36,937 bases of DNA. It comes from a virus. Each line of letters starts with the position of its first letter. Positions within the stretch are counted from its first letter, which is position 1. The stretch is from the IMG/VR virus record IMGVR_UViG_3300045988_048969, positions 1 to 36,937 of that record; one strand, 5' to 3'. A program made the position numbers and the translations under genes. Positions 28,594 to 36,937 of this stretch are shown one piece after another. Below the pieces are notes generated by a model, which saw only the letters and a list, made by a program, of their open reading frames with translations, had not been told where the DNA came from and made no database searches.

Positions 28594-31173
28594 ATATCAG
28601 ACGGAACATTAAAGTTTGATACAAAGATTGATACAAGTGGTCTAGAGAATGGAATGAAATCCGTTCATGAAGTCACAAGTGGAGCTACAAATGCAATTAA
28701 GGAAACTTCAAAAGCAATCGACAAGTTAGGTTCTGATGGTTCAAAAGCACCACCAAAGATTAGAGATAAACTTAAAGATTTAAATGATGAGCAAAAGAAT
28801 ACACAAACAGAAACACAAGAAACAGGTTCTAAATTTGATGTATTTAAACAAGTAGGAAACAGTGCCTTAGAGTCAATTCAAGGTGGATTTGATGGATTGC
28901 TAGAGAAGATTCAGAATATTAGTCCGGAAGCTACTGCAATCACTGAAACCTTAACAGGATTAGGCGTAGGAGGTGTTGTAGGCGTTACTGCCGTAGCAGG
29001 AGCTATTGGTGGTATGGCATTAGCAATTAAGACAGGTGTCAATCAAGCTACAGAACTAGATGACGCTATGGCTAAATTCCAAGCTCAGACAGGTGCTTCA
29101 AGTAATGAAATGAGCAAATTTAAAAACATTGCTCGTGATGTTTGGTCAAACAATTTCGGTGAAGATGTTTCAGATGTTGCCGATATGATGGGCAGAGTCA
29201 AGCAACAAATGCAAGGCATAAGTGATGTTGACCTAAAGAACGTGACAGAGGATTTATTAACTTTAAGAGATACATTCGATATGGATGAGAATGAAACTCT
29301 TAGAGGTGCTCAACAATTAATGAAGCAGTTCGGAATCACTTCTCAAGAAGCTTTCGACCTTATGGCTACAGGTGCTCAGAATGGTTTAAACAAATCAGAT
29401 GAGCTAGGCGACAACATTTCAGAATACTCCGGTAAATTCGCACAAGCAGGATATTCGGCAGATGAATATTTCCAATTAATGCAGAATGGATTAGATGGTG
29501 GAGCTTATAACCTTGATAAAGTAAATGACGCAATCAACGAAGTTACCACAAGGTTAGTTGATGGAACTATTGAAGGAGCTTTAGATAGTTTTGATACCAA
29601 GACGCAAGATGTCTTTAAAGCTTGGCAAGAAGGAAGAGCAACTCAGAAAGATGTTGTAAATGCGATTGTAGAAGATATTTCAAAGACTACAAATGAACAA
29701 GAAAAGTTGAATAAATCTGCAACGGCTTTCGGCACAATGGGAGAAGATTTCAACGCCGGATTCATTCAGTCCTTAACGACAGTAGGGAATAAATATAAAG
29801 ATGTAGAAGGGGCAATGGATAAAGTCAAAGAAATTGCAAATGGTGGCTTAAAGAACGCTTTAAGTGGCTTAGGGCGTGCATTTCTTGATTCATTTACTCC
29901 AATAGGCGAACTTATTACCCCTATTCTTGCAGGTATCATCGGATTAATTACAGTAGCTATACAAGGTATTCAACAAGGATTTGCTAAAGTTGGTGATGTA
30001 ATTTCAAATGTATTAAGCAAGATTGATACAAGTGGAATTACAGAATTGACAAGTCAAGTTTCAGAGGTGTTAGCTCCTGCTTTTGATGAGGTCAGAAAAG
30101 CGATTGACGAAATGAAAGTTGCACTTGAACCTATTGCAAAAGAAATTTTAAGCAAGATAGGCAGTGCAATTCAAAATGTAGTAAACCAAGCTCAAAAGAT
30201 TCTTAGCGTTGTAGGACCACCGATTCTAGCAATCATTAAGAAGATTATTCAAACAGTTATCGGTATGACTCCTGTAATAACATCTATTCTTCAAGTAGTT
30301 GGAAGTGTGGTAAGTGGAATCATTTCATTTATAACTATGGTTGTGACGTATGTAGGAACTGCAATTGCAACAATACTAGGATTTATCATGCCTATTGTTC
30401 AAATTGTAGCTACAATTGTAGCGAATATTTGGTCTGTAATATTAACGGTTGCTCAGAATATTTGGAGCAAAGTTAGCGAAGTAGTTACTGCTATTATTGG
30501 ATTCGTAAGCAATTTATTTAAGACGGTTTCGGACATCATAAACAAAATTTGGAGTAAGATTCAAGATTCCATGAACAAGGTAAGAGACAAGGTTCAAGGT
30601 GTTATTGATAATATTAATAAATATTTCAATAATGTTAAGAGTACTGTTTCTGATGTATTTAATGGCATTTGGTCTAAAGTTCAAGGTGTAATGGATAATG
30701 TAGGAAATAAAATTTCAAATGTTTTACAAGGAATACAGAATGCATGGAGCGGTTTAAAAGGGTTTGTAGGTGGTGTATTCGGTGGAATTGAAGGAGCAGT
30801 AGGTTCATTAGTCTCTAGTGTAAAAGGAATGGTAAATGGTGTTATCGGTGGCATTAACGGTGCAATCGGTATCATCAATAAGATTCCCGGAGTGCACATT
30901 GGAAGGATTCCTAGACTAGAGCGTGGTGGTGTATTAAAACGTGGTCAAATCGGTTTATTAGAAGGTAATGGAGCAGAAGCAGTCGTACCTTTAGAAAAAA
31001 ATAAAGCGTGGATTCGTGCCGTAGCTAAAGATATGGCTCAAATCATGCCTAGCGTTACGACAAATAACAATGGACAGACTATCAACTTCTACAATAAAGC
31101 TCAAAGTCCGGATGAAATCGCTAGAATGTTGCGAATGCAAGCAAGATATGGATATGGAGGTGTTGTTCAATAG
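28594..31173 (+). CDS. Tape measure protein, ATA start
   Basis: Frame opens after TGA 28591-28593. ATA 28594 follows AAGGAGGTGG 28576-28585. N-terminus SDGTLKFDTKIDTSGLENG is typical of TMPs; long Gly/hydrophobic and IWSK repeat region. Confidence 0.8.
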   Translation: MSDGTLKFDTKIDTSGLENGMKSVHEVTSGATNAIKETSKAIDKLGSDGSKAPPKIRDKLKDLNDEQKNTQTETQETGSKFDVFKQVGNSALESIQGGFDGLLEKIQNISPEATAITETLTGLGVGGVVGVTAVAGAIGGMALAIKTGVNQATELDDAMAKFQAQTGASSNEMSKFKNIARDVWSNNFGEDVSDVADMMGRVKQQMQGISDVDLKNVTEDLLTLRDTFDMDENETLRGAQQLMKQFGITSQEAFDLMATGAQNGLNKSDELGDNISEYSGKFAQAGYSADEYFQLMQNGLDGGAYNLDKVNDAINEVTTRLVDGTIEGALDSFDTKTQDVFKAWQEGRATQKDVVNAIVEDISKTTNEQEKLNKSATAFGTMGEDFNAGFIQSLTTVGNKYKDVEGAMDKVKEIANGGLKNALSGLGRAFLDSFTPIGELITPILAGIIGLITVAIQGIQQGFAKVGDVISNVLSKIDTSGITELTSQVSEVLAPAFDEVRKAIDEMKVALEPIAKEILSKIGSAIQNVVNQAQKILSVVGPPILAIIKKIIQTVIGMTPVITSILQVVGSVVSGIISFITMVVTYVGTAIATILGFIMPIVQIVATIVANIWSVILTVAQNIWSKVSEVVTAIIGFVSNLFKTVSDIINKIWSKIQDSMNKVRDKVQGVIDNINKYFNNVKSTVSDVFNGIWSKVQGVMDNVGNKISNVLQGIQNAWSGLKGFVGGVFGGIEGAVGSLVSSVKGMVNGVIGGINGAIGIINKIPGVHIGRIPRLERGGVLKRGQIGLLEGNGAEAVVPLEKNKAWIRAVAKDMAQIMPSVTTNNNGQTINFYNKAQSPDEIARMLRMQARYGYGGVVQ

Positions 31174-32039
31174 ATATCAATAAAGTAAGAGTTATTGTCC
31201 GTAGGGATGATGGCAAACAATTTGAAATTGATAACAAAAGATGGAGAATACCATCTAGTGATGGCTTAGATGGATTTGATTATGTAGCACCTTCATACAC
31301 GACTCAAGACAATGCATTCGGAAATGGTGCTAGATTAATCGGTTCACGTATTCCAACGAAAGAAAGAAGCGTGAAAGCTACCTTCAAAGGTTCGCTAGAA
31401 GAAAAAAGAGAAGAAAGGGAGAAGCTACGGCGCTTCTTCCAATATTCTCATGTATTTGATGTGATAGTTGAGTACATGGGAGAAAAGAAATATTGTAGAG
31501 GTCGTTTATATGCGTATAGCTTGCCTACAGTTAACATCTACAAAGATTTGGAGCTTAACTTTACAATTCTATGCACACAACCTTTATTGCTTTCATTTGA
31601 TGATTTCGCAAGGAATATAGCAGAAATTGGAGAAGGTTTAGCGTTCAATTTCGAAATACCGGAAACAGGCGTGAACTTTGGAACATTTACATTCGCTAGA
31701 GAAATCTATATTGATAATCAAGGAGATACAGAAACATACTGTAGAGCCGTTATTGAAGCATTTGGAGAGGTAACAAATCCGAAACTATTCAATAAAGATA
31801 AATATATTCGTGTATTAGATACACTACACAATGGTGATGTGTTAGAAATTGATTTAGTTTCAGAACCTATTTCGATTAAAAAGAATGGTGTGAATTGTAT
31901 CGGCAAAGTTGATAGAACCTCATCATTCAATGATATGACGATTCAGTTAGGTGAGAATATCATAGGATATACGGCAGACAATGGAGATACGAATCTAGCT
32001 TGCACGGTTTATTACAATGAAAGGTATTTAGGTTTATAG
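31170..32039 (+). CDS. Distal tail protein (Dit), ATA start
   Basis: Frame opens after TAG 31122-31124 with no canonical start until GTG 31371. ATA 31170 lies 9 nt after GGAGG 31156-31160 and overlaps the TMP stop (ATAG). Confidence 0.7.
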   Translation: MDINKVRVIVRRDDGKQFEIDNKRWRIPSSDGLDGFDYVAPSYTTQDNAFGNGARLIGSRIPTKERSVKATFKGSLEEKREEREKLRRFFQYSHVFDVIVEYMGEKKYCRGRLYAYSLPTVNIYKDLELNFTILCTQPLLLSFDDFARNIAEIGEGLAFNFEIPETGVNFGTFTFAREIYIDNQGDTETYCRAVIEAFGEVTNPKLFNKDKYIRVLDTLHNGDVLEIDLVSEPISIKKNGVNCIGKVDRTSSFNDMTIQLGENIIGYTADNGDTNLACTVYYNERYLGL

Positions 32040-32040
32040 T

Positions 32041-33054
32041 ATGTCTTATTTTGGATTAGATAAAGATTTCAATATTGTTACACATCTAGCACCTTATAAC
32101 GTGCAGTGGAATCGGCGATATTATGAAACAGGAGATTTCGAGATTTATATTGATATAGGGCAGTATTCGAGCGATATCAAATATATTTATTCAACTGAGG
32201 ATAAAGAGTTAGGAATTGTAGAAATACCGCATTATTCCGTTTCAAACAACACGAAACAAATGCTATTAAAAGGTTCTTTCTTTGAAAAGATTCTAGCAGA
32301 TGATTGTATTTATCCTACATTCTCAAGTAGCGGAAAAATTGTTGATGTGGTCAAAAAGCTATTAGACAAGTATTGCTCATGGAAAATGGGGTATAGATAT
32401 GATGAATCCATTACCGATAGAGTAGATTTTCAAGAAACAGGAGCGAACCTTGACGAGAAGCTTTATGAGTTATTGTATCCGTTAGAATTGTCTTTCCGTA
32501 TAGAATATGACTATGTGTCAAGTACGTTCACATTCGTGTTGTATCGTGGTCGTGACTTGACTCAGAACAATGTAGATGGAAATAACTTTGTTACATTCTC
32601 TACAGAGTTTGGAAACATTGAAGAACCGGACGTTATGATTGATTCTAGTAAATACAAGAACTATGCGATTATTTGTGGTGAAGGACAGTCAGAAGAGCGT
32701 ATTTATGTAGAATATGACGCTAGAATAGATAAGAATGAAAGAATTAAAAAATTGTTCGTAGACGCACGTTCTGAGCGTATGGGGGACGATGTGACACTTG
32801 ATGAATATAAAAAGGTACTTATTCAGAAAGGAATTGAAAAACTAGCAGATTGTCAAATTCAAGAAAATGTGAATTTCGGATTGAATACTGATTCATACGA
32901 ATACAAAGTTGATTTTGATTTAGGTGATAAAGTTGATGTTATAGTAGCAGATATTGGACTAGTAATGACTGCGAGAATTAGAAATATATTTGAAGTCATT
33001 AAAAGTGGATATAGAACCTTAGAATTAGAGGTTGATAATTTAAAAATCATGTAA
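32041..33054 (+). CDS. Tail tip protein (Siphovirus Gp37-like)
   Basis: Position after Dit; only 337 aa, with no fibre or RBP extension. Confidence 0.5.
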   Translation: MSYFGLDKDFNIVTHLAPYNVQWNRRYYETGDFEIYIDIGQYSSDIKYIYSTEDKELGIVEIPHYSVSNNTKQMLLKGSFFEKILADDCIYPTFSSSGKIVDVVKKLLDKYCSWKMGYRYDESITDRVDFQETGANLDEKLYELLYPLELSFRIEYDYVSSTFTFVLYRGRDLTQNNVDGNNFVTFSTEFGNIEEPDVMIDSSKYKNYAIICGEGQSEERIYVEYDARIDKNERIKKLFVDARSERMGDDVTLDEYKKVLIQKGIEKLADCQIQENVNFGLNTDSYEYKVDFDLGDKVDVIVADIGLVMTARIRNIFEVIKSGYRTLELEVDNLKIM

Positions 33055-33066
33055 GGAGTGAATTTA

Positions 33067-33567
33067 ATAGAAAAGAAAAATGGAGGATTTAAACAAATAA
33101 CAAGAAGTATGTATTTTCTAGACAAGATGAATGCAATTGGTGGTGTAGCCGTTGCCGTATTAACATACGTATTAGGTGAGCATTGGTATTTATTTGCGTT
33201 CTTCTTATTTATGAACGTCGTGGATTATATTACAGGGTGCATGAAGTCGGCGATTAATCACAAAATCAATAGCAATAAAGGATGGATTGGAGTCCTTAAA
33301 AAGCTAGGCTATTGGATTATGATTGTAGTTGCGTTCACGTTCAGTGCATTCTTGGTAGAGATTGGAAAAATGCTAGGAATTGATTTCCATGTAACTACAT
33401 TATTAGGTTGGTTTGTATTGGCTTCTTTATGTATTAATGAAGTGCGTAGCATTATTGAGAACCTTGTACAATGTGGATATAGCGTGCCTAGTGTATTAAC
33501 TAAAGGTTTGGAAGTAGCGGATAAAATCGTTAACGAAGACAATGACGAATCAAGTACCTTGGAATAA
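33067..33567 (+). CDS. Holin (Phage_holin_4_1 / toxin-secretion holin type)
   Basis: MNVVDYITGCMKSA...SNKGWIGVLKK...NEVRSIIENL. The start is uncertain: ATA 33067 (8 nt after AAGGAG), ATA 33097, ATG 33109 and ATG 33127 are all in frame. Confidence 0.8.
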   Translation: MEKKNGGFKQITRSMYFLDKMNAIGGVAVAVLTYVLGEHWYLFAFFLFMNVVDYITGCMKSAINHKINSNKGWIGVLKKLGYWIMIVVAFTFSAFLVEIGKMLGIDFHVTTLLGWFVLASLCINEVRSIIENLVQCGYSVPSVLTKGLEVADKIVNEDNDESSTLE

Positions 33568-33808
33568 GATTATTTTAGAAGAGTTTATTAATCTAGCTTT
33601 ATTAACTAAAGATGAAGAAATGATTCTAAGAACAAGAATATACGGATGGACAGTTAGAGAACAAGCCGACAGATTGAATATGAGTGTTTCTAGTGTAAAT
33701 AGAATCATCAAAAGAATAAAGAACAAGTATGATGAAGTAGAGAAGTATAGCGCAGTCCTACCACCAAGAAAAAGCAGTGAAAAAGAAATGTATCTAGATA
33801 AAAATTAA
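33542..33808 (+). CDS. Small sigma-region-4 / LuxR-like HTH protein
   Basis: EEMILRTRIYGWTVREQADRLNMSVSSVNRIIKRIKNK. Confidence 0.55.
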   Translation: MTNQVPWNKIILEEFINLALLTKDEEMILRTRIYGWTVREQADRLNMSVSSVNRIIKRIKNKYDEVEKYSAVLPPRKSSEKEMYLDKN

Positions 33809-33832
33809 GAGGTTGAAAAGCCTCTTTTTTTT
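33808..33832 (+). terminator. Rho-independent terminator
   Basis: AGAGG/CCTCT stem followed by T8. Confidence 0.65.
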
Positions 33833-33880
33833 GACATTTATCTGATATTAATGTGAAAACAAACTGAGACTGCCTATGAA

Positions 33881-33886
33881 TATAAT
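33881..33886 (+). promoter_or_regulatory. Consensus -10 box TATAAT upstream of the accessory cluster
   Basis: Perfect hexamer 25 nt upstream of ATG 33911; no good -35 element seen. Confidence 0.35.
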
Positions 33887-33910
33887 TAGGAGTGTAAAGA
33901 GGTGAGTAAA

Positions 33911-34336
33911 ATGTATAATCCAATCAATGACAGAATTAATAATTTAATGAATCAAAAGCAGATGATTGAATCGCAGTTACAAAACATTCAACAGTTAGCA
34001 AATATTCCACCTATTAACATCAATAACCAAATTACACCTAATATGGCATTGAATGATTTTAATGGAAAATGGGTCAATAATGAACAAGAAGCAAGGAATA
34101 TGATGGTGAATGGTTTGCCTAGTATTATGCTAGATAGAAATGATTCAGTATTCTATATGAAGTCTTTAGATGGCAGTTTCAAGAAATACAGATTCCAAGA
34201 AGAAACAGAACCGAAGAAAGACAATATAGAACAACGCTTAGACAAGCTAGAAGCTATGATATTAAGCTTAAAAGACGGAAGTAATATAAATGCAAGGGTA
34301 AATAAAGAAACGCCTAGAAAGGAGCTTAAAGCGTGA
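33911..34336 (+). CDS. N/Q-rich hypothetical protein (accessory cluster gene 1)
   Basis: ATG 33911 behind AGAGGTGA. Confidence 0.6.
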   Translation: MYNPINDRINNLMNQKQMIESQLQNIQQLANIPPININNQITPNMALNDFNGKWVNNEQEARNMMVNGLPSIMLDRNDSVFYMKSLDGSFKKYRFQEETEPKKDNIEQRLDKLEAMILSLKDGSNINARVNKETPRKELKA

Positions 34337-34542
34337 ATCCTTTAATGAATATGATGAACCCTCAACAAATGTTGTTGGGTATGTTACAACAAAGAAATCC
34401 ACAAGCATTTAATCAAGTTCAACAATTAATGCAGAGTGGGCAGAATCCCCAAATATTGCTTAACAATATGATGGGGCAACTTACGCCACAACAGAAACAA
34501 CAGTTTGAAAATGTGGCAAATCAATATGGGCTAAAACGCTAA
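34333..34542 (+). CDS. Q/N/M-rich 69-aa protein (accessory cluster gene 2)
   Basis: GTG start behind AAGGAG with GTGA overlap; 17 of 69 residues are Gln. Confidence 0.55.
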   Translation: MNPLMNMMNPQQMLLGMLQQRNPQAFNQVQQLMQSGQNPQILLNNMMGQLTPQQKQQFENVANQYGLKR

Positions 34543-34566
34543 TTGCGTTGAAAGGAGGAAATATAA

Positions 34567-35178
34567 ATGGAAAGCATGAATGGTATTCAACCAATGTACG
34601 ATTTAGCAGACAGAAATAACAATGAATGGGGTAGTGGAAATTGGATTTGGATTATCCTTTTATTCTTATTATTTGGTGGAAATTGGGGTAACAATGGCAA
34701 CCTACAGAATGATGAATTAATGAATCAAGAATTTATTAAGCGTGATTTATTCAACACAAATCAGAATGTATCTAGCCAAGGTTTCCAAAATTCAAGAGAC
34801 ATTCTAGAAAGCCGATACACAACTCAATTAGGCTTGCAGAATCTAGGACAACAGAATCAAGAATGTTGTTGTGCAACGCAAAGAGCGATTGATGGAGTAA
34901 ATACACAGAGCTTTAAGAATACGTGTGATATTACCACTGCAATTCACTCAGAAGGCGAAGCAACAAGAGCATTGATTAATGCAAATACAATGCAAGAATT
35001 GCGTGATAAATTAGCAGACAGAGATAGAGATTTATTAACTGCAAACTTCCAATTAAGCCAACAGGCGCAATCTGCTAATATCATTAACACATTGCAACCA
35101 ACACCAAAACCTGCATATCTTACTTGCTCACCTTATTATGCATACAATATGACAGGTTGTGGATGTAACCAAATCTAG
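34567..35178 (+). CDS. Membrane-anchored Cys-motif protein (accessory cluster gene 3)
   Basis: TM helix WIWIILLFLLFGG, G/N-rich spacer, ECCCATQRA, and C-terminal CSPYYAYNMTGCGCNQI. Confidence 0.6.
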   Translation: MESMNGIQPMYDLADRNNNEWGSGNWIWIILLFLLFGGNWGNNGNLQNDELMNQEFIKRDLFNTNQNVSSQGFQNSRDILESRYTTQLGLQNLGQQNQECCCATQRAIDGVNTQSFKNTCDITTAIHSEGEATRALINANTMQELRDKLADRDRDLLTANFQLSQQAQSANIINTLQPTPKPAYLTCSPYYAYNMTGCGCNQI

Positions 35179-35213
35179 CTCGAAAGAGATTAGGCAATAG
35201 CCTTTGGATTATA

Positions 35214-35242
35214 GGGTAGTCGAAAGGCTACCCATTTATTTT
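35214..35242 (+). terminator. Hairpin with GAAA tetraloop and T-rich tail
   Basis: GGGTAGTC(35214-35221) GAAA GGCTACCC(35226-35233), then ATTTATTTT. Confidence 0.5.
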
Positions 35243-35259
35243 ATAGGAGGAAAAGAAAA

Positions 35260-35679
35260 ATGATTAATAGTATAGCAACGGCAGTACAAACAGTAGCGAA
35301 TGGACAAAATGTATTATTTCCAACGGACAGAGTAAGAACGAAATCTTGTCAATGTGCATGTAAAGGTTGGCTTGCTCATGATGTAGGAAGTGGATTGTTT
35401 ACATTGACAAAACAAGGAATTTATGAAGTAGAATATACGGCAGATATTACAAGCACAACGGTAGGAGTAGCTTCTTTAGAATTAGAACAGAATGGAGAAG
35501 CAGTAGGAGGAACAGAATCTTTATATAATGTAGCTACTGCAAGCGCATATGGAAATGTAAGTGGAGCTACATTGATTCAAGTACCTTGTGGAGCTTCTTA
35601 CACGATTACACTAGGAAATAACAGTGGCTTAGATTTATCTGTTCAAAATGCAAATATCATCATTAAGAAATTAGCGTAG
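35260..35679 (+). CDS. BclA-C-terminal-domain-like (C1q/TNF-like jelly-roll) protein without collagen repeats
   Basis: FTLTKQGIYEVEYTADI...LELEQNGEAVGGTES...NANIIIKKLA resembles, from memory, the Bacillus exosporium BclA / ExsFA C-terminal domain. Confidence 0.45.
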   Translation: MINSIATAVQTVANGQNVLFPTDRVRTKSCQCACKGWLAHDVGSGLFTLTKQGIYEVEYTADITSTTVGVASLELEQNGEAVGGTESLYNVATASAYGNVSGATLIQVPCGASYTITLGNNSGLDLSVQNANIIIKKLA

Positions 35680-35686
35680 GTGTATC

Positions 35687-36124
35687 ATGCAAGAGGTTAG
35701 AAAAAGGAATCTAGACCTCTTAACCGAAGCAATGAGAGGACTAGAAAAAGGATACAATGATTTAGATTTTAAAGTCATGAGCCAAGCCTTAGACAACATC
35801 AAAGACATTGATACAATATTGGCTATGAGTGATGGAAGAACGGCTATAAATGCATTAAGAACAAATGACACAGATATTGAAGGAACAGAAATTGATGACA
35901 ATATTGCATTGATGAATAGCCATTTTAGAAAATACATAGAAGCAAAAAAAGAATATCGAAAAGATAACAATGAAATTGATAAACGAACATCTATTCGTGA
36001 GTTAGAAGCTTTTTTGAGCGCTATGTATGGAATCTTAGAAGAAATGAAAACGTCTAGCGACTTTCAAGAAGAAAGAGAAATGGTCAGAGATAAATTAAGA
36101 GAAATGTTCTCTGTATATCAGTAA
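35687..36124 (+). CDS. Acidic helical hypothetical protein (accessory cluster gene 5)
   Basis: ATG behind TAGGTG. Confidence 0.55.
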   Translation: MQEVRKRNLDLLTEAMRGLEKGYNDLDFKVMSQALDNIKDIDTILAMSDGRTAINALRTNDTDIEGTEIDDNIALMNSHFRKYIEAKKEYRKDNNEIDKRTSIRELEAFLSAMYGILEEMKTSSDFQEEREMVRDKLREMFSVYQ

Positions 36125-36130
36125 TAAAAA

Positions 36131-36174
36131 CCTCTTTTATGTGCTATAATTGGTACATAAAGGAGGATTTTTTT
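36131..36174 (+). terminator. Long hairpin plus T-run whose 3' arm contains the endolysin SD
   Basis: CCTCTTTTATGT(36131-36142) pairs with ACATAAAGGAGG(36155-36166), with one G-U pair; followed by ATTTTTTT. Confidence 0.6.
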
Positions 36175-36175
36175 A

Positions 36176-36937
36176 ATAAATTATCAAAGTTTTAAAAAAG
36201 CCGTATTAGGCAAAGCATTCGACATTGACGGATATTATGGTGCGCAGTGTTGGGACGGATTCGCAAAGTACATGATTGATTTAGGCTATCAAGCTATCCA
36301 TTGCACAACAAGTAGCTTTGTTAAGGACATTTGGAACAATCGAAAAACAAATGGTATCTTGAACTATTGTAATGAGGTCTCAATTATGCAACCGGGAGAC
36401 ATTGCGGTATTTAAAGAAGTAGCAGGATGGACTCCATACTCACATATCGCAATCTTTGATTCTGATATTGACGGAAAGCAAGGATGGTTCTTGGGTCAAA
36501 ATCAAGGTGGAAAAGGCGGAGCATTCAATTTAATTAAATTACCTTATTTTGCAACCTTTGATACTGCGTTTAGACCTAAATGTTTCGCAAATACAGGAGC
36601 AGTTAAACCAAGCATTCCACAACCTGTAGAAGCAATTGACCAAATCTTGCACGCAGGAAGCTACGTAACATCCGTACAAATGAAGATTGGCAATCAAGGA
36701 TTGAAACAAATCAATGGCGATTTATGCGCATACCTTGCACAATTAGGTGGTTGGTTTCCAATTCGTATGGTTGACAAAGTTCGCTATTCTGATGGATATA
36801 ATGATAACGTATTGCATACAACAAATGCCGTTGTCTACGTTACAAGAATCCGTGTTGATGAAGTCAACGTGCAAAAGAATCTTGCGAAAATCGGTGGAAT
36901 TTGGGTAAATTGTGGTCCATTAATTGAAGTAGCATAA
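36176..36937 (+). CDS. CHAP-domain endolysin with C-terminal SH3b-like cell-wall-binding domain, ATA start
   Basis: Frame opens after TAA 36158-36160. ATA 36176 lies 9 nt after AGGAGG 36161-36166. The catalytic-Cys motif YYGAQCWDG (TGT 36248-36250) lies upstream of the first ATG (36272); His motif YSHIAIF; ends TAA 36935-36937. Confidence 0.85.
   Translation: MNYQSFKKAVLGKAFDIDGYYGAQCWDGFAKYMIDLGYQAIHCTTSSFVKDIWNNRKTNGILNYCNEVSIMQPGDIAVFKEVAGWTPYSHIAIFDSDIDGKQGWFLGQNQGGKGGAFNLIKLPYFATFDTAFRPKCFANTGAVKPSIPQPVEAIDQILHAGSYVTSVQMKIGNQGLKQINGDLCAYLAQLGGWFPIRMVDKVRYSDGYNDNVLHTTNAVVYVTRIRVDEVNVQKNLAKIGGIWVNCGPLIEVA

Follow-up and report, generated by a model that had tools for sequence, protein, structure and literature searches.

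In this study, we analyzed the interval of about 2.6 kb between the holin and endolysin genes of a virus recorded in IMG/VR as IMGVR_UViG_3300045988_048969, whose positions 1-36,937 (36,937 nt) constitute the window referred to throughout. Comparative analysis indicates that this block is a self-contained, horizontally exchanged late-gene module whose parts have stayed together in many unrelated gut phages. The unit, hereafter called the cassette, is composed of a helix-turn-helix (HTH) gene that closes the late operon, a terminator, a promoter lacking a -35 hexamer, four open reading frames (ORF1-ORF4) and a lineage-specific fifth gene (ORF5 in the window), and it recurs in hundreds of unrelated gut phages. 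Its natural loss in relatives further indicates that the cassette is dispensable and that neither the virion nor lysis strictly requires it, yet it is under purifying selection.

Conservation, exchange and natural loss of the cassette

Homologues of ORF3 and ORF4 were found by tblastn to adjoin one another in many gut phages. When the HTH gene and ORF1-5 were traced through other phages with iterated local profiles, they were present, in the same order, in unrelated phage backbones. In a set of IMG/VR phages and a Solobacterium-binned contig, ORF1-5 share 58, 62, 78, 85, and 32% identity with the window, and the cassette precedes an r1t-type holin and an amidase. Further carriers include contigs binned to Waltera, Phascolarctobacterium, Anaerofustis, and Megasphaera, Dulem viruses 33, 35, and 39, and the named Butyrivibrio phage Ceridwen and Clostridium perfringens phage CPD1, the last without a detectable ORF4. 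The cassette is mostly positioned beside lysis genes or at a prophage end. A search of IMG/VR with DUF7841 (PF25223), a family that occupies the fifth slot of other cassettes and is unrelated to ORF5 of the window, returned at least 549 loci; among the best 80 of these, the ORF4 family lies directly upstream in every case (80/80) and ORF1-4 are present in 67, while loci without the full set carry divergent analogues (e.g., L117). An earlier reading of the window, made without database searches (the sequence-only reading), had suggested co-occurrence of the five genes across genomes as a check, and their synteny in unrelated backbones and at the 80 DUF7841 loci confirms it.

At the DNA level, the window resembles the unrelated backbones L055 and L014 only over 33880-35682 and 33939-35827, and the first of these starts coincides with the -10 element of the cassette. 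Since the homology extends from that element through ORF4, it is the promoter and ORF1-4 that are exchanged together, whereas the fifth gene can be swapped. The cassette does not stand out as foreign by its GC content. The window phage itself was assembled in many samples, with single ORF5 sequence variants found on up to 189 contigs. On one scaffold (L012, 2419-9993), the ORF of a 2524-aa Flg_new-repeat surface protein runs out into the final 24 residues of ORF4, with ORF5 and the lysin behind it; this arrangement was considered as a Rosetta-stone fusion and rejected as only a junction or assembly artefact, the scaffold having arisen either by chimeric assembly or by recombination at a prophage remnant.

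A holin-anchored search retrieved 29 phages closely related to that of the window, with holins at least 86% identical. The cassette is present in 26 of the 29, although some of these loci are cut inside it by the contig end, and it has been lost in L199, L211, L217, and the pair L107/L108 by four different deletions (Table 1). All deletion variants retain the hairpin, -10 element and ribosome-binding site ahead of the endolysin, and over the stretches retrieved the sister phages are otherwise intact. Four independent deletions with differing breakpoints imply that the cassette was ancestral in the lineage, has been lost repeatedly and is dispensable for the phage genome. In comparisons with relatives that are 93-99% identical, the ratio of non-synonymous to synonymous polymorphism (pN/pS) was 0.04-0.13 for all six genes (HTH, 0.10; ORF1, 0.07; ORF2, 0.13; ORF3, 0.05; ORF4, 0.04; ORF5, 0.07), with Tal, holin, and lysin in the same range; such low values indicate real, selected genes rather than chance ORFs. 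An essential virion component would be expected in all relatives and would belong to a structural family, but deletion variants exist here and the PHROG matches are all to families of "unknown function." The terminators, the -10 element, the insertion/deletion variants and the homology boundary at the promoter are features of a moron.

The sequence-only reading had described the block as a five-gene cluster inserted between two normally adjacent genes. It was correct about the insertion, since in sister phages holin and endolysin adjoin or are separated by deletion remnants, but not about the gene count, which is six with the HTH gene included and with the fifth slot variable. Its coordinates for all ORFs, the HTH gene, the terminators, the TATAAT and the terminal hairpin were borne out on the sequence; the five ORFs are exact and each is preceded by a Shine-Dalgarno sequence.

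Table 1. Features of the holin-endolysin interval in window coordinates, and deletion junctions observed in close relatives.
Feature	Position	Strand	Remarks
Holin (left flank, outside cassette)	33058-33567	+	PF05105 Phage_holin_4_1, E 2.3e-32; kept in all deletion variants
HTH protein, 88 aa, sigma-70 region-4-like	33542-33808	+	Presumed cassette-specific regulator; HTH_23 and Sigma70_r4_2 matches
Intrinsic terminator	33807-33834 (hairpin 33807-33826 plus T-run)	+	Insulates cassette from late operon
TATAAT, -10 element of cassette promoter	33881-33886	+	-35 hexamer absent at 16-18 nt
ORF1, 141 aa	33911-34336	+	
ORF2, 69 aa	34333-34542	+	Start overlaps ORF1 stop
ORF3, 203 aa	34567-35178	+	
Internal terminator-like hairpin	35214-35233	+	In ORF3/ORF4 gap
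ORF4, 139 aa	35260-35679	+	
ORF5, 145 aa	35687-36124	+	Acidic, helical; occupies variable fifth slot
16-bp terminator hairpin	36131-36166	+	Closes cassette; kept in every deletion variant
CHAP endolysin (right flank)	36176-36937	+	PF05257 and endolysin PHROGs; probably non-canonical ATA start
Deletion	33553 joined to 36068		43-nt ORF1 scrap remains
Deletion	33561 joined to 35574, plus 35833 joined to 36116		
Deletion	33623 joined to 36038		
Deletion	34144 joined to 35801		In-frame ORF1::ORF5 fusion P0257

The start of the HTH gene overlaps the 3′ end of the holin gene by 26 nt. Terminator-like sites number four, compared with a chance expectation of 1.4. At the right border, the frame of the endolysin is free of stop codons from 36161 onward and its first ATG occurs at 36272, but the CHAP catalytic motif QCWD lies 5′ of that ATG; the endolysin must therefore begin near 36176, at an ATA situated 9 nt after a GGAGG, in agreement with the start given by the sequence-only reading. 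The GGAGG (36162-36166) forms part of the 3′ arm of the terminal hairpin, whose loop region contains an extended -10 element, TGcTATAAT (36142-36150), and the T-run that follows the hairpin comprises 5, 7, or 8 T residues in relatives. Because of the non-canonical start, gene callers applied to public contigs truncate this lysin. On the left side, the last genes of the tail module within 28654-33054 encode the tape measure, a Dit protein (SPP1_Dit) and a Tal protein of 337 aa (Sipho_Gp37), directly followed by the holin, and no receptor-binding or tail-fiber gene is recognizable in this interval.

The cassette proteins and their presumed regulator

Profile comparisons indicate that ORF4 is a stand-alone head of the BclA_C / C1q-TNF family. 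Against BclA_C (PF18573), it scores 39.1 bits, a small margin over the cut-off of 38.0, with an E-value of 7.9e-10 and coverage of model positions 5-128 of 128. A profile built from 13 ORF4 homologues matches the C-terminal head of F-BclA (PDB 9H38) with an E-value of 2.2e-6, while the same profile reaches E-values of only 4-5 against BclA entries 2z5w and 3twi. F-BclA is the tip fibrillum of the F-ENA appendages of Bacillus thuringiensis, where its trimeric head sits at the tip of a stalk (PMC12357932). ORF4 also matches PHROG 20016 (E 6e-17), and its gene directly follows that of ORF3 in many phages. The protein has no GXY collagen repeats and no exosporium leader, and an NCBIfam scan with E-values up to 1 found no family for it, hence no TIGR03720 (exosporium leader). 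Proteins that occupy the ORF4 slot in CPD1 (125 aa) and in crAss-like phages (136-146 aa) were compared as candidates, but their homology to ORF4 could not be shown and is not claimed.

ORF3 begins with a short acidic N-terminal tail, which is followed by a Trp/Gly-flanked hydrophobic anchor at about residues 26-38 (WIWIILLFLLF) and then by a polar, probably coiled-coil region in which a CCC motif, an NTC motif and His127 are invariant (alignment A1). Its C-terminal part carries the invariant motif PxPAY(L/I)TCSPY and a Cys/Gly-rich tail, and a CGC motif is also present in the protein. A long helix spans residues 117-175 in a low-confidence structural model. Lysine and arginine are commoner on the C-terminal than on the N-terminal side of the anchor (62 vs. 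38), and these counts weakly favor a cytoplasmic C-terminal domain that would be able to meet soluble partners. The family has 5126 relatives and matches PHROG 16490, but corresponds to no Pfam family. It extends to many crAss-like phages, a Bacteroides uniformis phage and viruses assigned to Methanomassiliicoccales. In crAss-like phages, where depositors annotated the homologues as "spike" or "viral fiber," the gene likewise lies beside lysis genes, and in cr53_1 it is preceded by that of a DUF7841 protein.

Several side observations concern this family. Some ORF3 homologues show a tandem duplication of the unit 'RYTTQLGLQNLGQQ..CCC.TQ.EI' (alignment A1, columns 182-210), and the crAss and archaeal-virus versions contain several Cys-initiated repeats of about 22 residues each. 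In cr53_1 (L008, 3239-4611), the ORF3-like gene and the next gene each contain an in-frame stop codon under translation table 11, which is consistent with stop-codon reassignment. Reverse-transcriptase genes adjoin tail-protein genes, a few genes 5′ of the ORF3-like gene, both in cr53_1 (L008, 281-1303) and in vir215 (L106, 3152-4186), a virus assigned to Methanomassiliicoccales. Since the tail protein of cr53_1 is annotated as similar to major tropism determinant, these loci are probably diversity-generating retroelements.

The remaining proteins are less readily classified. In its AlphaFold2 model, which has a predicted local distance difference test (pLDDT) score of 72, rising to about 90 in the beta domain, ORF1 (22.7% N+Q; 86 sequence relatives) consists of a Q/N-rich N-terminal helix, a small four-stranded beta domain (residues 52-94) and a C-terminal helix. 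No PDB fold matched this model with an E-value below 0.05, and its many matches in BFVD are all uncharacterized gut-phage proteins. ORF2 contains 39% N+Q and 13% Met and has a syntenic homologue in most cassettes; by eye only, it recalls a Met-rich segment that precedes the anchor in the ORF3 proteins of crAss-like phages and archaeal viruses. ORF5 (isoelectric point, 4.8) has only 27 representatives among 1.8 billion proteins and evolves rapidly, with 32% identity where ORF4 retains 85%. Its membership in DUF7841 was considered and rejected, as it has no Pfam match and comparison of alignments A4 and A5 by hhalign gave a probability of 0.06%. By inspection, no signal peptide is evident at the N-termini of ORF1, 2, 4, and 5, and only ORF3 has a hydrophobic targeting segment.

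Family searches with ORF1-5 in Pfam, PHROGs, and NCBIfam returned no lysis family, the holin and lysin on the flanks being the only genes to match one, and with PADLOC included they returned no enzyme, toxin, defense, or structural family. The best PADLOC match was not significant (E about 0.003), with none below an E-value of 0.03 for ORF1-5. NCBIfam, PADLOC, and Rfam yielded no informative match, and profile searches of PDB sequences with ORF1, ORF3, ORF5, and DUF7841 found nothing significant. These results uphold the statement of the sequence-only reading that none of the five proteins resembles a virion or lysis protein, and the same applies to defense families. Its account of composition also holds (an N/Q-rich ORF1, a Q/N/M-rich ORF2, an anchor with CCC and CGC motifs in ORF3 and an acidic, helical ORF5), as does its likening of ORF4 to the BclA C-terminal domain, given the Pfam cut-off passed and the profile match to 9H38. 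The profile and structure searches that it proposed identified the family of ORF4, but neither a known fold for ORF1 nor relatives of known function for ORF3 and ORF5.

The HTH protein matches HTH_23 with 27.1 bits (cut-off, 24.6) and falls just under the cut-off of Sigma70_r4_2 (24.5 vs. 25.7 bits), and positions 110-160 of TIGR02937 align to it with an E-value of 2e-6. No sigma region 2 was found in its 88 residues; only the C-terminal part of sigma models aligns. A homologue is encoded 5′ of the cassette at 27 of 38 ORF3-positive loci and at 76 of 80 DUF7841-anchored loci. The layout of HTH gene, terminator and, about 50-80 nt further on, a -10-like element without a -35 is repeated in many remote cassettes, some of which have direct repeats at the place expected for the -35. 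The best sigma-70-like promoter match of the region lies inside ORF5 at 35790-35817 (TAGACA, a 16-nt spacer and TACAAT, with TG; 10/12). Among close relatives, 2 of 23 distinct HTH alleles have an internal stop (L049, 4976-5176, and one other), with ORF1-5 intact there. Gene order also varies in the Dulem viruses: in Dulem virus 39 (L001, 2826-4889) an integrase-annotated gene separates ORF1 from the HTH gene, and an endonuclease-annotated gene lies on the opposite strand between the ORF2-like and ORF3-like genes in Dulem virus 33 (L005, 4401-4952).

Possible roles of the cassette

The reading that we favor, at a probability of roughly 0.4, takes the cassette for a mobile late module of accessory genes whose products act at the envelope around lysis, with ORF3 as a membrane-anchored, Cys-rich stalk, ORF4 as a trimeric cap, ORF1 and ORF2 as assembly partners and the fifth protein as an adaptor. 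In this scheme, the HTH protein, co-produced with the holin, would activate the cassette promoter and the five proteins would be made very late in the lytic cycle, such that the cassette may represent a "later than late" unit turned on by its own region-4-like activator. ORF3 would enter the cytoplasmic membrane via its single hydrophobic segment and form an oligomeric, probably trimeric, polar coiled-coil stalk, and its invariant Cys and His residues could serve in cross-linking of chains or in metal binding. A C1q/BclA-type trimer of ORF4 would cap this stalk, producing a split, membrane-anchored analogue of BclA or of TNF-ligand-type fibers. The Q/N/Met-rich, coiled-coil ORF1 and ORF2 might act as assembly or chaperone partners, and the fast-evolving fifth protein might match the conserved core with a partner particular to the phage or host. 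It is conceivable that the complex works at the envelope of the infected cell near lysis, e.g., in phage exclusion or sequestration or in altered release, and that the cassette is a gut fitness factor rather than an essential virion or lysis part.

A number of observations weigh against this interpretation. No function-defining domain was found in any cassette protein by sequence, profile, or fold searches. The link between ORF3 and ORF4 is drawn only from the adjacency of their genes, and a pairing of stalk and head cannot be universal, as an ORF4 homologue is undetectable in C. perfringens and crAss-like phages. The AlphaFold2 monomer model of ORF3, made from a 33-sequence alignment, is poor (pLDDT 48) and unusable for a fold search, and the topology of the protein is ambiguous, with Gly/Asn/Trp-rich flanks, few charges and a hydrophobic core of about 13-17 residues. 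Finally, the regulatory role of the HTH protein is deduced solely from the position of its gene, and in some phages other genes, integrase included, separate that gene from ORF1.

Possible, though with a lower probability, is that the cassette encodes a non-essential virion appendage, in which ORF3 would be a trimeric coiled-coil fiber with ORF4 as its C1q-like knob, docked by ORF5 or DUF7841 to varied capsids or tails and promoting adhesion in the gut to mucus or a secondary receptor. The models for such an appendage are adenovirus fiber, PRD1 P5, the Sf6 needle knob and T4 fibritin, with T4 Hoc as the model for adhesion. The cassette always lies in or beside late structural regions on the same strand, ORF4 falls in a fold family of fiber heads, and the crAss homologues of ORF3 carry the depositor labels "viral fiber" and "spike." Dispensability together with purifying selection is as expected for a decoration protein, the exchange of the fifth slot between lineages is adaptor-like, and the window phage has no recognizable receptor-binding gene after Dit and the 337-aa Tal. 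However, a strongly hydrophobic anchor conserved throughout the ORF3 family would be odd in a soluble fiber, PHROG structural categories are unmatched, and the cassette is insulated by terminators and has a presumed regulator of its own; in Dulem virus 39 and CPD1 it is not located within the structural modules. Moreover, ORF3 and ORF4 are 74-85% identical across unrelated tails, on contigs binned to different bacterial families. The related idea that the cassette supplies the missing receptor-binding protein of the phage was rejected as the principal explanation, since deletion variants persist and ORF3 and ORF4 remain 74-85% identical in company with other tails.

It is doubtful that the cassette is a moron expressed from the prophage, with a role in superinfection exclusion, abortive-infection defense or, as the sequence-only reading had it, lysogenic conversion of the cell or spore surface. 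A membrane protein is encoded, ORF4 belongs to a family best known from exosporium proteins, and the promoter-like -10 element, the terminators, the presence/absence polymorphism and the location of the cassette as the last unit before an integrase or attachment site in many prophages would all suit such a role. The PADLOC searches described above and the lack of any enzymatic or NTPase domain nevertheless speak against defense, and lysogenic conversion is called into question by a promoter without a -35, by overlap of the presumed activator gene with the 3′ end of the holin gene and by the occurrence of ORF3-family genes in crAss-like phages too. Predicted hosts also include non-sporulating genera, and ORF4 has no collagen stalk, with TIGR03720 not among the NCBIfam matches.

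Likewise improbable is an accessory lysis function, by which ORF3 and its partners would tune holin triggering or envelope breakdown as an antiholin, a lysis-inhibition protein or a release factor. The location is suggestive, as the cassette sits within the lysis cassette in the window and, in most other phages, the crAss-like ones included, directly adjoins holin, endolysin, or spanin-like genes, and the HTH gene overlaps the holin gene; however, the late-operon end is a generic landing site for phage accessory genes. ORF3, which is predicted to cross the membrane once and to form a coiled coil and which carries cysteines, loosely resembles Rz-type i-spanins, yet no similarity to holin, antiholin, spanin, or endolysin families was detected. 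The binned hosts of the same core include monoderm as well as diderm genera and possibly archaea, and deletion variants persist with holin and lysin.

A bolder and rather unlikely proposal is that the cassette specifies a late "organelle" of gut phages, i.e., a Cys-rich, membrane-anchored fiber system with C1q-like heads, turned on after the holin gene by a mini-sigma-like activator and shared by viruses of anaerobes (Firmicutes, Bacteroidota and possibly methanogenic archaea). Such an organelle would come into play at lysis or later, perhaps through oxygen-triggered cross-linking that tethers or embeds virions and debris, a tethering of progeny that can be likened to baculovirus very-late occlusion, or else through binding of a conserved gut ligand.

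The weakest idea, a spore-specific role, is unlikely, given that full cassettes occur in contigs binned to the non-sporulating genera Megasphaera and Phascolarctobacterium and in an isolate phage of the equally non-sporulating Butyrivibrio, that ORF3 relatives occur in crAss-like and predicted methanogen viruses and that ORF4 lacks both a collagen stalk and an exosporium leader.

Relation to known systems

In the literature available, searches on BclA plus phage, DUF7841, PHROG numbers and the names of C. perfringens phages brought up no account of the module, in line with the suggestion of the sequence-only reading that this is an undescribed system. The cassette is a six-part module common in human-gut phages. 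It is conserved across phage morphotypes, and its carriers are binned to several phyla; being selected and yet repeatedly lost, it bears the signature of an ecological fitness factor missed by laboratory phage biology. It also offers a regulatory test case, namely a region-4-only sigma-like protein ahead of a -35-less promoter, and natural deletion variants together with cultivable carriers (CPD1 and relatives, Ceridwen) make the module directly testable.

Among known systems, BclA and F-BclA share with the cassette the C-terminal head, in that ORF4 passes the BclA_C gathering score and its profile reaches 9H38. In contrast to these exosporium and appendage proteins, ORF4 is a bare head of 139 aa, is encoded by phages and occurs with non-sporulating hosts as well, and its stalk, if there is one, is a separate coiled-coil membrane protein. 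Trimeric viral fibers such as adenovirus fiber, PRD1 P5, the Sf6 tail-needle knob and T4 fibritin present a jelly-roll knob on a shaft, and fibritin and Hoc are dispensable. The cassette would resemble them in setting a TNF/C1q-like trimer on a polar coiled-coil shaft, and in its dispensability. However, its putative shaft and head are on two polypeptides, the shaft has a membrane-type anchor and invariant Cys clusters, and the genes are separately regulated and belong to neither the tail nor the head operon; a relationship to these fibers was shown neither by sequence nor by fold.

Morons located by lysis genes include the immune-evasion cluster of Staphylococcus aureus, streptococcal prophage toxins and an abiF-like gene between the holin and endolysin of the Clostridioides difficile phage phiC2. 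Location, an own promoter and terminators, presence/absence polymorphism and exchange between backbones are common to these and the cassette. Unlike them, the cassette has six genes, a presumed dedicated regulator that is sigma-region-4-like and no toxin, enzyme, or defense domain, and ORF3-family genes occur in a similar neighborhood of crAss-like phages. Clostridial loci that combine a holin, a small sigma-type regulator and cargo are known in TcdR/TcdE of the PaLoc and in UviA/UviB-bcn. There, a sigma-related regulator gene stands beside a holin gene, much as the gene of the presumed regulator does in the cassette, and it drives the neighboring cargo; the HTH protein of the cassette, by contrast, is an 88-aa region-4-like protein without region 2, and the cargo is neither toxin nor bacteriocin. 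DUF7841 fills the fifth slot of many cassettes and is also found in the crAss-like phage cr53_1, though ORF5 of the window is unrelated to it. Taken together, the module as a whole seems to fit no known kind, with one domain of a known fold family and one DUF slot, and its nearest generic category would be that of the phage moron.

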